DNA of 64,000 bases from Eledone cirrhosa (taxonomy: Eukaryota). The notes under the pieces are model-generated. The model had not been told where the DNA came from. It ran no database searches and saw only the letters and a list, made by a program, of their open reading frames with translations. Both the position numbers and the translations under genes were made by a program. The stretch covers positions 29,202,001 to 29,266,000 of the forward strand of contig OZ024754.1 in the NCBI GenBank assembly GCA_964016885.1, given 5' to 3'. Shown here piece by piece: positions 5,061-52,415 of the stretch. Numbering within the stretch: position 1 is the stretch's first letter; each line of letters opens with the position of its first letter.

Positions 5061-5955
5061 ATATACACACAGACACAAACACACACACACACGTAGACAC
5101 ATACACACATATATATATATATATCGAGCTCTCTTTGGATTTTAGTCTTCACATTTATTATTATTACTATATACATATACATATATATATATGTATACAG
5201 TGAAGGCAAATATATATATATTTTCTGTACACTTTTCCCTTTGTATTTTTTAACTTTTCACCTAGAAAGTGGCATAAATTCTGCTGCAAGAGCAATATAA
5301 TCTTTTTACATAAGACCATAAATTGAATATTCAATACTTAGCAGTCTACCTTAAAGTAACTCAGTTATTTACTGCAATGGAATATTAAATAAATCTTTGA
5401 AAACTTTAGAAATGTTTTAAAAGTTAATTTGGCTTTAGAATTCCCAAGTGTTCTTTTTTTATGTTTGTAACAAAAGAGATTCTAAAATGATTGATTGTGT
5501 ATATGGAGAAATGATAAAACATGGCATTGATAAATTTCTTTATATGGAAATGACAAATCAACTTGATTTAACAATACAATGTTGTATCACGAACATAAAA
5601 GGCATTAAAACAACAATAACTACAACAACGAGAACAACAAACATAACAACGACATCAAAAACGACAACGATAACAATAACAACTACAACAGCAAAGACGA
5701 ATTATGTACCGGAAAACGGTGATAAACAAGTCGCGGCGTTAAAGTGTGTGAAACAACAGGCTTTGATTCCATACTACCAATATATATATATATATATATA
5801 TATATATATATATATATATATATGCAAAAGTTTTATTTAAAATTGTTGGGTTACAACAAGTAAATATTTTATAACTGATATAAAGCACTCAACAAGTTTT
5901 GGAGTAGATATACGATATTAAACAAATGGAAACTATATTTATAAAACCATATTTA

Positions 5956-6017
5956 TTTCATTATACATATTTCAGGGATACCCTATTAAAAATATGGCAT
6001 GTCTTCTTCAGATAAAA
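5956..6017 (-). ncRNA. Type I hammerhead ribozyme (family J)
   Basis: Reverse complement reads ttttat CTGAAGA [stem II] GAAA tatgta TA atgaaa. Confidence 0.7.
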
Positions 6018-7038
6018 TACAATATATAAGCAGTTTTATAAATAAATTTGACGTACCATAAATATTGATCAACTTTTATGTAAGAAGTTGGTTTGGTAGT
6101 GAGATGTTTATAAATATTTAGTGTTAAGCACAGTTAGAAAGAAAGACGGAGAAAAAGAAGAAATGTATGTAAAGAAAAACAGAGAGAGATAGAGAGAGAT
6201 AGGGGAGAGAGAAATAGTGAGGAGGTGAAAAATGAGAGGCAGCTGAGGCAACAGATGAATAATAATAATTCATCATACAAATTGAGAGATTTAGAAGGGA
6301 AGGAGTACTGTAATTATTTAGTTATAGTGTTAAGGAGACGGAGAGAAATAAAAATAATAAATAAAGAGACAACAGAGAGGTAGAGAAAGATAGAGGTGGG
6401 GGGAAAAAGAGGTAGACCAAATAATAATAATTATATATGGGGAGGTGAGAGAAATAGGAGAGAAGTAAGAGAGAAAACAAGAGAGAAGCTCGAGAGGCAA
6501 AGTTAAAATAAACGATACTTAAATTTCATCTTGTATAAAGAGGGAGGAGAAGAAAGAGCTATATCTAGAGAGAAGGATGATAGATTTACAACTTTACATT
6601 ATGTCCTATCAATTTGAATTATCAATTCATATGAATTGGGTATTATAATGTAATATCAATATTCGTGAATGAGACATCGTGAATGAGACATAGATATATA
6701 ATGTGTGAAAAATAATGACCATATGTTTAGTTCCTTAACACTATAACTAAATAATTACAGTACTCCCTCTCTCCTAAATCTCTCAATTTGTATGATGAAT
6801 TATTATTATTCATCTGTTGCCTCAGCTGCCTCTCATTTTTCACCTCCTCACTATTTCTCTCTCCCCTATCTCTCTCTATCTCTCTCTGTTTTTCTTTACA
6901 TACATTTCTTCTTTTTCTCCGTCTTTCTTTCTAACTGTGCTTAACACTAAATATTTATAAACATCTCACTACCAAACCAACTTCTTACATAAAAGTTGAT
7001 CAATATTTATGGTACGTCAAATTTATTTATAAATTGTA

Positions 7039-7100
7039 TTTTATCTGAAGAAGGCATGCCATATTTTTAATATGGTATCCCTGAAATATGTATAATGAAA
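7039..7100 (+). ncRNA. Type I hammerhead ribozyme (family J)
   Basis: ttttat CTGAAGA agg-c-atgccatatt-ttt-aatatggtat-c-cct GAAA tatgta TA atgaaa; stems I, II and III all pair. Confidence 0.8.
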
Positions 7101-7387
7101 TAAATATGGTTTTATAAATATAGTTTCCATTTGTTTAATATCGTATATATATATATATATATATATATATAATATATATATATATATATAGTATAATATA
7201 TAAATATATATATATATATATATATATACATATATATATATATATATATATATATATATATATATACATATATATATATATATATATATATATATATATA
7301 TATTATATATATATATATACATATGATATATATATATATATATATATATACATATATATATATATATATATATATATATATACATAT

Positions 7388-7562
7388 AGGTATGTTATTC
7401 CGGGTTGAATCGGAGGTAACCACAGTAAGTAAGGTACTCAATACATAGCAGAGTATAAAAGTTTTAATATAGATGAGATTCTACAGGACTAGAATTGTTT
7501 CATCAATGATGATTTCTAAAGAATGAAACAGTTCTAGTCCTGTAGAATCTCATCTCTCTCTA
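7388..7562. mobile_element. HHR family A inverted pair
   Basis: gagattctacaggactagaattgtttcat / atgaaacagttctagtcctgtagaatctc; core (A)TGATGA at 7506. Confidence 0.75.
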
Positions 7563-48854: not shown

Positions 48855-50230
48855 GATAGTTAGATCAGACCAAAGAAATTATGTTTCCATTGTTTTTTCC
48901 GTTACTGATATAAACTTCCGATAATAACTCCTGGTTATTGAAATAAATGAGCCCGTCATCATATCAGACCAAAGAAATTATGTTTCCATTCGTCTGTCCT
49001 TTGCTGATATTAACGGCCGATAACAACTCCTGGTAATTGAAAGAAACGGGACGGTTATCAGATCTAGCCAAGGAAACTAGTTTTCCTTTGGTCTTTTGAT
49101 TGTTGATACTATAAGGGGGTCGCAACCCATGTTTTATTTTTCAAAGAAAGACATGAAAATCACTTTGAAGTTTTGAATTAATGAGATTCTTTAGCCTGTT
49201 TAATGATATGGTTTAAATGGACTCTTCTTCAGCGTGTCCAGCCATTATATTATTAGTCATACACGAAATGAAGTTTTGAATGAAAGAAATTCTTTAACCT
49301 GGTTAATGATATGGGGTAAATGGACTCTTCTTCCGCGTGTCCAGCCATTATGTTATTATTAGTCATACACGAAATGCAACCTAACTAGAAGTAACGTCAC
49401 TTCAATTTCCAAACATCAATATTATTAAACAAAATTTGTTGATTCCACTTGATTAAGAATTATTTAAAGTGTTCATGCTTGTATGAGGCCGCCTTTGTTT
49501 TAACTAACATTTCTTTCTCATATATCAACACAACTCTCTTGTGTTGAGCTATATTTTAACCACAACCGAAGCACAAAGAAAGTAGAAGTAGAGGCACCAC
49601 CCTACCCAAATTCTTGTGTCAATAAACAAATTCTCATACATTATAAAGAAATATTACATTTTCGCTTTCTAGAATGTGATTCCCTTTGTTCTACTTAACG
49701 AATACTGTCTAATATATTATATTCCTTGTGTTCAGCTCTTTAATAATTCCAATTAAAGCGCTGGGAAAATAAAAAAGTAAAGATACCTCACCAATTTCTT
49801 AATTTTATTCTAGAATGTTGTTTCCTTTTTCCTAACAAACAACCACTGAGTAATATATTATATTCCTTTCAAATAGATGCTTTATTAATCACAAGAGATC
49901 TGTCAAGAAAATAAATAGAAGTAATGGCAATTCACTTTCCAAATTGTCAGTATTAATAAATAAATTTATAATAATCTACGACATTATACAATTACATTGA
50001 TTTTAGTCTAATGTGTAGCTTTCTTGTGTTCCAACTAACAAATATATTCTAATGTATCACTTTCTCTTGTGCTAACCTCTTTATTAACCAGAATGTAAAT
50101 GCATGGAAAAATAGATGCTATGACGTTTCATTTCTCAAATAAATTCCAGCTCTCATAAATGAATTTATAATGTTCTAATACATTATATTTTATTTTCTTT
50201 CTTTTAACTAATATATTACACTCCAGTGTG
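48855..50230. repeat. Mosaic of degenerate ~100-180-bp tandem repeats
   Basis: atcagaccaaagaaattatgtttccatt at 48864/48963; tgaagttttgaat..gtcatacacgaaatg at 49166/49270; aatatattatattcc at 49711/49852. Confidence 0.6.
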
Positions 50231-50639
50231 TGTCAGGGCCTTTTTAAGCAACAGCTAAACATGCAAGCCAAAAAGAATCTAGTAGAGCAAAACGCGTGAC
50301 ACCTTCTTAAGTGGCAACCTGATGCTGTTCTGTTTGCCAAGCCGAAGAGGATAAACTGGCCAATTGTCGGTTGCTCTCTCATAGGTTTGAAGTAGAGCTT
50401 GTAGCAATGGAGACGTCCCCCAAACCATATCCTTTCTCGTTATAATCGGAGTGGAGTGGGATGGCTGCAGGTGCGAGCCCCGCGATTTGGAGTGGCTGTT
50501 AATTAGTGTTTAGTTTGTGGTATCTTTGTTTCTAAGGATCAAACTTATATATATTTGTATCTATCTAAATATACATATATATGTACACACAATCACAAAA
50601 ACACAGGCGCCTAACACATGTATGTATGTATGTCGGGTC

Positions 50640-51190
50640 ACTCTTGAGTTCTACTGGTAACATGTAACCCAGTACAACCTGTCGCATGGTCGGGTCGTCG
50701 GCGACTAAACCGGCAACCCCACCAAGTTTACTTTGTGAGGAGGGTGATTTGGGACACCCAGCAGGAAGAAAAAACAAAACCTGACAAAGGGCGGAAGAAC
50801 TCATAAGAGTCAACGGCCATTCAAAAGTGTGCAAATATGTATATACACATGTACATATGTATGTATATGTATATGTGTATATACATGGGTGCATGTGTAT
50901 GTATATGCGCGGGGACATAGAAGTAGTCGGGCTGGATACCCGAGCGTGCAGTTAAACCACTGCGAGTGAAGGACCCCTAGCCTTTGTCAGGGCATTCTTC
51001 TAGGAGAAAGCAACTCAGGAAACTGGGATAACTCCGATATAAAACCTGCGGCTCAGTAGTAACCGATGATATTGATCCTTTCTTCTTTTCAGGTTGCAGC
51101 TACTGTCGCTCAGAGAATGGGATTGGCTCAGTGCACAGTCTTTCCTCACTTTAAAAAATATGTTCACGCACAGGCATTGCACGATAGAAT
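50640..51190 (+). mobile_element. Probable LINE (RTE-like) 5' region, interrupted by a microsatellite
   Basis: GC-richer non-coding block; gggc.ga.gaactcataagagtcaacggc is shared with 2953-2983 on the opposite strand; family assignment from recalled similarity only. Confidence 0.4.
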
Positions 51191-51418
51191 TAATTAATAA
51201 TTATTAATAATGGAATATCGTGCAATGGCCATACTCGATAACGAGGGGACAGCCATCATGTATGTATGTAGGTAGGTATACTGTATATGTATATATATAT
51301 ATATATGTGTGTGTGTATATATATATATATATATATATATATATATATATATATATATATATATATATATATATACGATATTAAACAAATGGAAACTATA
51401 TTTATAAAACCATATTTA

Positions 51419-51480
51419 TTTCATTATACATATTTCGGGGATACCATATTAAAAATATGGCATGCCTTCTTCAGATAAAA
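51419..51480 (-). ncRNA. Hammerhead ribozyme (family J)
   Basis: Reverse complement nearly identical to 7039-7100. Confidence 0.75.
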
Positions 51481-52415
51481 TACAATATATAAACAGTTTT
51501 ATAAATAATTTTGACGTACCATAAATATTGAGCAACCGTTATGTAGGAAGCCGGTTTTATAAATATAGTTTCCATGTTTAATATCGTATATCTACTCCAA
51601 AACTTGTCGAGTGCATTATATCAGTTATAAAATATTTACTTGTTGTAACCCAACGATTTTAAATAAAACTTTTGCATATATATATATATATATATATATA
51701 TATATATATATTTGTAGTAAGGATGCTTGGATGCGTCCTTAGGCTGTATGCCGGTTGAGCACTCTATGCTCCTTCGGAGCAGAGTATGATGATATGGGAA
51801 ACGAAGAATCAGTGATGCATCGGAACACAATTTATTACGTATTACAATCGTTTCTTCGGCGAACGGTTCGAGGTGCGATATGTTTGTGGATCGAAACTGA
51901 CTCTGGATTCGCAAGTTCCTCAGATACATCTAGTGATTTCGAAGCTAATCTTCTTTCTCCTGGAATCTGACCCTTCGAATTTCTATCATCTGCCATCATC
52001 CTGTTTGCGCGGCACGTCGATTGGTTGATTGTCCGAGACGTCATCTGTGTGTTTGACCATTCAAATCTGCCCACTGACCATTTCCATTCAGGCGTGAGCT
52101 GTCACTCACCTTAATCCCGCCGCCAGAAATTACTGTTATGTGTAGTAGAGGTGTTATGAACTGTCTTGCCCTTCCCTGGCTTGCCCGTTGCCCTACACAT
52201 ATACACCCACACACACGTGTGTTCACACATAAACAGACATTCCGAGTCATTGATCGCACACTTATCTGTGCGGACACACACGCACACACACACGCACGCA
52301 CGCACACGCACACGCACACGCACACACACACACACACACACACACACACACACACACACACACACACAGTGTTCCATCATTATCTTTTTCTGATTTATGC
52401 TGTTCAAGATCTAGC

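Follow-up and report, generated by a model that had tools for sequence, protein, structure and literature searches.

Head-to-head Penelope-like element insertions in Eledone cirrhosa pair two family-fixed end sites, with a recurrent motif as a candidate reverse transcriptase positioning signal

Introduction

Penelope-like elements (PLEs) are the closest relatives of telomerase reverse transcriptase (RT). In the twin priming known from L1, both target strands prime and a head-to-head inversion results, with a variable internal site set by microhomology and with arms that abut. For PLEs, inverted pseudo-long terminal repeats (pLTRs) carrying a tail of 30-40 bp at one end have been described (PMC3846280, PMC8557442), and a Poseidon PLE cuts and extends both strands in vitro from two starts that bound the tail, in a reaction that needs 3' RNA and was modelled as the work of a dimer (PMC11167929). 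The origin of tandem and of inverted one-tailed PLE insertions is stated there and in PMC8557442 to be open. Here we analyze a 64,000-nt window of the Eledone cirrhosa genome (contig OZ024754.1, positions 29,202,001 to 29,266,000) that carries a series of two-armed insertions in TA tracts. Our reading, which we consider likely, is that these are head-to-head PLE insertions in (TA)n, mostly of the Hydra clade, in which both target strands prime, one at each of two sites, while a short motif positions the enzyme.

Results

Arm ends fall on two family-specific sites

The first-pass annotation of the window had described insertions made of two outward-facing arms, a long one reaching the true 3' end and a short one stopping early at a reproducible AT-rich site. 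We followed these insertions by self-alignment of the window and by mapping onto single reference copies per family, and we call the end that includes the tail S1 and the end without it S2. Family letters other than J, B and A (D to K) are labels of this analysis and not those of the annotation, and L-numbers denote sampled genome stretches or copies. The J short-arm ends are fixed between AATATCG and TATA at 7143, 47730 and 51376 (the earlier positions 7147, 47733 and 51373 include TA-ambiguous bases), and the ends proposed for B at 10797, 29680 (with a variant sequence) and 43606, and for A at 7562 and 30388, were borne out.

The J insertion at 5824-7143 joins an S1 arm (5824-6732, sense on the minus strand) to an S2 arm (6732-7143, sense on the plus strand), its 89-nt tail from S2 to S1 occupying 5824-5912 on the minus strand. 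The other J insertions lie at 47473-47730 (short S1 arm 47473-47546, S2 arm 47588-47730) and 51376-51675 (S2 arm 51376-51557, S1 arm 51553-51675). Family B is present at 10511-10797 (S1 arm left, S2 arm right), at 29680-29864 (S2 arm left, S1 arm of 114 nt right) nested within an A insertion, and at 43122-43606 as a 98% palindrome with a tail of ~90 nt at its left; a single-armed plus-strand copy at 12070-12221 ends at S1. The A insertions at 7391-7562 and 28998-30388 both have S1 left and S2 right, the second holding the nested B copy and a short interspersed repeat, and a single-armed plus-strand A copy at 20141-20267 ends at S1. A diverged A-like two-armed insertion at 22068-22257 has a 94-nt tail and an imperfect CTC..GAG motif.

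The source genome comprises 3.0 Gb, from which each family was sampled as the best 40 candidates per search. A further 100 stretches of 8-10 kb were taken for opposite ends (J 20, B 20, A 20, D 20, F 13, E 7) and represent a subset of the unpaired arms; duplicates were removed by coordinate, and arms below 88% identity or with less than 150 nt of flank were excluded from end-site counts. Plotted across these sampled loci of the window's own genome, arm ends are bimodal and not random. Among 127 J arms, 66 end at S2, 53 at S1 and 7 elsewhere, with 1 read-through; in the same order the counts are 53, 27, 2 and 3 for B (85 arms), 32, 23, 2 and 1 for A (58), 27, 25, 2 and 0 for F (54), 21, 20, 1 and 14 for G (56), and 17, 19, 0 and 0 for E (36), and K has 43 arms at S2, 42 at S1 and 2 elsewhere (87 arms). 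Only two alignment positions account for 105 of the 118 TA-flanked J ends, and five of the seven J arms that end elsewhere are, by eye, tailed arms from diverged subfamilies. The S2 ends of A are spread across ~12-16 nt. Tail lengths are ~89 nt in J, 90 in B, 77 in A, 96 in F, 87 in G, 80 in K and 147 in E. Family D has a single end site (36 ends, 8 read-throughs, 1 other), and the two-armed layout is absent from its full-length element at 30406-35263.

As the annotation had supposed, the copies represent separate insertions and not duplicates: flanks are unlike between most sampled copies, the exceptions being one G insertion present three times and one K copy repeated on contig C27. The reproducible breakpoint is real across families; it is not new in kind, and what looked like an early stop corresponds to the edge of the one-sided tail already published for PLEs (PMC3846280, PMC8557442).

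Insertions pair one end of each kind

Taking as a pair any outward-facing arms within 9.8 kb, we found that 93 of 105 pairs combine one S1 with one S2 end, where 50% would be expected under independent choice (p 5.5e-17). The excess holds family by family (J 30/34, B 16/19, A 6/7, F 16/18, G 11/12, E 14/15); one duplicated event accounts for three of the G pairs, and counting it once gives 91/103. Of the 12 exceptions, inspection left only 2 as genuine S2/S2 insertions, small palindromes with 82 and 106 bp between their anchors; the others are separate insertions with intervening TA tracts, damaged arms or misclassified tails. In K, 22 of 25 pairs are S1+S2, with two unclassified and one uninspected S1/S1 pair. 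Family D has no inverted mate in 25/25 loci. Single-armed copies are common: when S2 arms were traced inward, 10 of 39 in J and 18 of 45 in B proved to be single-armed.

The arms are joined directly. In J, the arms of 16 of the 20 resolved pairs (of 34) come together within 10 nt, overlapping by 0-8 nt or leaving small gaps; of the other four pairs, two leave 19 and 30 nt between the arms, one overlaps by 20 nt and one contains a tandem copy (gap 644). The longer arm is S1 in 9 of these 20 pairs, S2 in 8 and neither in 3, and therefore carrying the tail does not depend on being the longer arm; the picture of a long arm that reaches the true end and a short arm that stops early does not hold, and in the insertions at 47473-47730 and 51376-51675 it is the shorter arm that carries the tail. 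Altogether 68 of 84 S1 arms extend more than 14 nt beyond S2, by up to 2.6 kb (lower bounds in F and A, whose references are short), so the same stretch of RNA is copied twice. A minority stop near S2, among them the window arms at 47473, 51553 and 29752. That S1 arms stall at S2 as a general rule found no support (9/84 within 15 nt, against 4-8 in adjacent bins). In the J copy L151, the arms exceed one unit (4,031 + 619 nt).

In J, B and F, mates also resemble each other more than non-mates do. With 9 pairs left out as separate insertions or duplicates, together with pairs whose arms fall below the compared length, the divergence in J is 0.032 between mates and 0.083 between non-mates (31 pairs, p 5e-5), and the difference is significant in B (p 0.015) and F (p 0.008).

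A short motif recurs behind the end sites

The annotation had proposed that TA microhomology selects the internal priming site, or else that reverse transcription starts at a defined internal site. Read-through copies reveal TA-like runs at S2 and S1 of 5 and 6 nt in J, 4 and 3 nt in B, and 8 and 5 nt in G, and a microhomology of 3 nt at the K site. Within the tails, TA runs of 5 nt in J, 7 and 8 nt in B and 5 nt in F stay unused; of seven apparent B ends at an internal TA run, six are alignment artefacts of TA flanks and one is ambiguous (C2:139513518). Because equal or longer runs in the tails are passed over, TA microhomology, present at ~3-8 nt at both sites, does not choose the site and is insufficient as a rule. 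The two family-fixed ends instead support the second proposal, a start at a defined internal site, and priming by both target strands is likewise supported.

A matched RCTC..GAGY motif lies 7-17 nt beyond 9 of the 11 sites with readable downstream sequence, namely S2 and S1 of J, B and G and S2 of F, A and K; the K site was tested after the others, and the sequence downstream of S1 is not readable for E, F and K. In the window, ACTC-N11-GAGT stands at 5887-5905 on the minus strand, 7 nt 3' of the J S2, and in the read-through copy L151 GCTC-N10-GAGC stands 10 nt 3' of the J S1. The K-S2 motif is exact in 32 of 42 tailed arms, with G-U pairing in 3 more. Shuffles give a chance rate of ~0.01 per 30 nt. 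In 4,250 nt of J sequence the motif has just 2 matches, each located 7-10 nt behind an end site, and in 3,320 nt of B it has 3. Its pairs swap A-U for G-C between sites and families, its loop ranges from 8 to 38 nt, and the hairpin is predicted at 7 of the 9 motif sites (P 0.57-1.0). There is no motif near the single end of D.

The motif is also visible by eye in published coral and sea-cucumber sequences, among six Hydra consensi in the supplement of PMC8557442. Hydra-1_Ajap carries two GCTC..GAGCACTCT copies ~70 nt apart before the ATG and an AT run at its end, and Hydra-2_Amil and Hydra-2_Ajap each carry one copy behind an AT run near the 3' end. Behind S1, the motif is kept in J, B, G and Hydra-1_Ajap, in sequence that is missing from S1-ended copies; pattern searches beyond S1 in F (4 matches) and E (1 match) gave flanks only. 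Taken together, these patterns lead us to regard RCTC..GAGY as a probable RT positioning signal.

Several observations weigh against this reading of sites, motif and pairing. Folding does not predict the stem in F (P 0.13) or in K (P 0.07), and only one of its four base pairs ever varies. No motif lies behind the S2 of E, a two-armed family with a Hydra-type open reading frame (ORF), and 11 of 14 copies of A have a compact variant stem, GCACT-N3-AGTGC, behind S1 instead. Among the six published consensi, Hydra-1_Crog carries motif variants only, and a clear motif was not recognised by eye in Hydra-1_Amil or Hydra-1_Obim (PMC8557442 supplement). Poseidon_Ac shows no strand bias between its start sites and no target homology (PMC11167929). 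There is no overall pile-up of S1 arms at S2. Mate similarity is non-significant in A, G and E, and where present it does not discriminate between a single RNA, two RNAs from the same source locus and later homogenisation. The sampling itself leans one way, since best-scoring matches favour young, long arms.

Identity of the element families

On protein motifs, we assign the J, B and A insertions to Hydra-clade PLEs. The J copy in L151 contains a frameshifted ORF with an RT and a C-terminal nuclease, the CxCX5C linker and no CCHH (judged by eye, in J only), in agreement by eye with the Hydra clade of PMC8557442. Hydra-type ORFs with RT or endonuclease motifs also occur in the bodies of B (L310), A (L322) and E (L365, L366). 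The CxCX5C linker was found in J, A and E and was not detected in the scanned B copy, and DKT replaces DKG in B, the listed ORF pieces of the other families not covering that stretch. The (TA)n preference of the clade fits the TA flanks on 118 of 127 J arms. Pfam gave no match for J and, for D, only weak RVT_1 and GIY-YIG matches below cut-off. The DKG, the CX2-5CxxC linker and the CCHH pattern of its protein mark D as a Neptune-like PLE. No ORF was found in the examined copies of F, G and K, and G is a non-coding unit of ~470 nt, tandem in relatives. Partial tandems of the pLTR type were seen in L151 (J), L296 and L310 (B), L322 (A), the window at 35079-35263 (D) and the G arrays.

A pattern search for hammerhead-type cores (CTGANGA..GAAA) was positive in 4 of the 8 reference stretches. 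In J, F and G the core lies upstream of S2, in D upstream of the single end. Rfam reported no hammerhead at these cores, in a listing swamped by microsatellite matches. The idea that S2 is the hammerhead cut site was rejected for J, where the core begins ~93 nt upstream of S2 (cut position by eye).

Alternative explanations

Of the alternatives, the one that survives best accepts two RT start sites as real but makes S1 merely the end of read-through transcripts carrying flanking (UA)n, or has the tail trimmed from one intermediate by the element's own nuclease. The motif would then serve a different function, such as signalling to the nuclease or in translation. The rarity of read-through junctions in J (1/127 arms), the lack of a motif in E and the nuclease-mediated resolution suggested in PMC8557442 agree with it, but the motif is kept behind S1 in four elements at a place that S1-ended copies never reach, and tail ends coincide with RT starts in vitro (PMC11167929). 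We judge this account improbable.

We give slightly less credit to fold-back, in which one cDNA copies itself or switches to antisense RNA and the return strand ends at a fixed site; antisense self-priming has been proposed for PLEs (PMC3846280). Self-copying of an S1 cDNA cannot produce the 8 of 20 pairs in which the S2 arm reaches further inward, and the tail cannot come from an S2 cDNA. The same motif behind both sites suggests an equal role for the two, even though 3 of 20 J junctions are near-perfect hairpins and the two S2/S2 palindromes have the form that fold-back would give.

L1-style twin priming, with the second strand annealing at any TA microhomology on the same RNA and each RNA segment copied once, appears less probable again. 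It would account for the TA microhomology at each site read and for the S1 arms that end near S2 (47473, 51553 and 29752 in the window and, post hoc, 6 of 22 in B, which stop no more than 18 nt beyond it). The tail TA runs that stay unused (save the ambiguous B case at C2:139513518), the K site with just 3 nt of microhomology and the 68 of 84 S1 arms that pass S2 all run counter to it, and as a sole rule it is largely refuted by the unused runs and the overlapping arms.

An assembly artefact from fold-back reads, or duplication of single insertions, is scarcely credible: no short-read record bridges the junctions in contigs and restriction-site-associated DNA reads over 51376-51675 or in contigs over 6650-6815 (a gap that proves nothing) and one G insertion is triplicated, but junctions and flanks vary by copy, arms differ by several percent, ends are family-specific within a few bases, and D in the same assembly shows no such arms.

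Other insertions and repeats in the window

Further two-armed insertions in the window belong to families E, F, G and K. The E insertion at 10936-11263 has relatives with the 147-nt tail and lacks RCTC..GAGY behind S2. The F insertion at 40249-40634 has a 96-nt tail with ACTC..GAGT and a hammerhead-type core; a second F insertion 2.1 Mb away (L200, G000:C14:27125380-27125770) shares both its inner junction and private variants, but their flanks differ right after the TA tracts, so that this F palindrome may have been copied whole as one unit. The G insertion at 44048-44713 has the motif behind both sites, its left arm being damaged in this copy. Family K is represented by a miniature insertion at 44768-44933, with an 80-nt tail and, in most relatives, ACTC..GAGT 8 nt behind S2, and by another at 7573-7720. 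In this family, 22 of 25 pairs have 82-104 nt between anchors; the arms stop at nearly the same inner point, which is a fixed copy length giving insertions of ~170-190 bp that resemble miniature inverted-repeat transposable elements (MITEs). In G000:C27:15817325-16815926, a large segmental array contains at least 30 repeats of a single K insertion, spaced 10-100 kb apart.

The D element at 30406-35263, on the minus strand, is a full-length Neptune-like PLE, by its motifs, with a 5' partial tandem, and its one end site, without inverted mate or motif, makes it our control. Elsewhere, at G000:C8:31394504-31439042 (L269-L290), at least 27 matches to the D pLTR/5' region are spaced by ~416 bp or multiples, forming a putative satellite derived from a PLE end.

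A TA-flanked repeat at 43718-44047 has a sub-threshold match to hammerhead HH9 at 43926-43997 (Rfam, E 6e-6), and the repeat also adjoins an F copy in L177. By self-alignment, a short interspersed repeat of ~190 bp is abundant in the window, often beside (ATT)n, with copies at 1557-1763, 8146-8333, 17081-17468, 18636-18837, 27057-27375, 29865-30102, 36392-36572, 55446-55638 and 63570-63692. An element resembling long interspersed elements at 58637-63532 has an RT match (Pfam RVT_1, E 9e-19) and a 94% identical 3' copy at 56453-57612. A 295-bp palindrome at 38996-39290 without TA-tract flanks and a 1.8-kb element at 53119-54951 with short inverted ends and DDE-like ORF pieces are probably DNA transposons.

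Discussion

The two fixed ends, their pairing and the recurrent motif are consistent with an insertion process in which both target strands prime. That two primed cDNAs start at two fixed sites is the part of this reading in which we place high confidence. The GIY-YIG nuclease would cut both strands of (TA)n, each cut 3' end would anneal to an AU-rich stretch of 3-8 nt in the RNA immediately 5' of a motif, and two RT subunits would begin synthesis at S2 and S1, probably sharing a single RNA. The enzyme at S1 would displace the S2 cDNA, or sometimes stall near it, and the two cDNAs would end at unrelated points and then be joined end to end by repair; a single-armed copy would arise when only one cDNA is captured.

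One RNA is the simplest account of the one-of-each rule, and it would need strand displacement; we lean towards a single template for both arms, with little more than even confidence. Long S1 arms (up to 2.6 kb) would need a tandem or circular template because S1-ended copies lack the motif behind S1. Hammerhead-made circles would supply such a template and explain arms longer than one unit, as in L151, and a circular template is a possibility that we would not presently favour. More broadly, and tentatively, Hydra-clade PLEs may carry a duplicated RNA signal by which each half of an RT dimer is seated at its own start site on a shared RNA, which might be a circle made by the hammerhead. In such a programmed twin priming, that RNA would be copied twice, by strand displacement, into both ends of a double-strand cut.

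If programmed twin priming is true, the PLE tail, the inverted pLTR and the partial tandems would be explained at once. A motif of 20-45 nt at a fixed distance from both starts, together with the pairing rule and a one-site control, can be probed directly by mutation in the in vitro assay that already exists. An RT guided to its start by a short signal within the RNA, and writing into both ends of a cut, would also be of interest for genome writing. For annotation, such palindromes should be read as retrotransposon stumps and not as MITEs.

The retrieved main text of a preprint on non-LTR retrozymes (bioRxiv 10.64898/2026.07.22.740005) makes no mention of tail, hairpin or priming; like those elements, G consists of non-coding units of ~470 nt in tandem and has a hammerhead-type core, and unlike them it is also two-site and two-armed. 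The retrieved parts of PMC13282606 held nothing relevant, and the supplement of PMC11167929 gave no text matches, its figures S1 and S2, which may show a related structure, lying outside a text search. Searches of the openly accessible literature, and thus not of subscription papers such as the 2006 PLE survey that defined the tail, turned up no description of the repeated motif, of tails of this length or of the pairing rule.

Like L1 twin priming, the insertions described here point to priming by both strands and show head-to-head inversion; unlike it, their second site is fixed, their arms overlap in the majority of cases with a minority that abut, and there is no poly(A). Hallmarks of endonuclease-containing (EN+) PLEs seen here are an ORF of RT and GIY-YIG type, partial tandems that form pLTRs and an inverted 5'-truncated copy with a one-sided tail, this last in the S1+S2 pairs and not in D. 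EN+ PLEs with an inverted pLTR (Pen2a_Av, PMC3846280; legend of Fig. 2 in PMC8557442) show the same inverted 5'-truncated copy, partial tandems and optional one-end tail; the tails are 77-147 nt here against 30-40 there, and pairing is counted here and is independent of arm length. The Hydra clade (PMC8557442) shares the C-terminal GIY-YIG, the CxCX5C linker, DKT and (TA)n targeting, with hammerhead cores as a candidate further likeness. Its account, in the passages retrieved, comes without a tail, two end sites or a repeated motif, although the motif is visible in the supplementary consensi.

Another parallel is Poseidon_Ac (PMC11167929), where the tail likewise lies between two adjacent internal RT starts, cleavage and extension involve both strands, and RNA 3' of the starts is needed. 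Its starts lie at an AC-rich stem-loop inside the ORF, whereas those inferred here lie before the ATG at TA-like runs, each with its own motif and with one start per arm. The architecture is thus largely explained as known PLE biology, and it is the cis-signal and the pairing rule that are new and testable.

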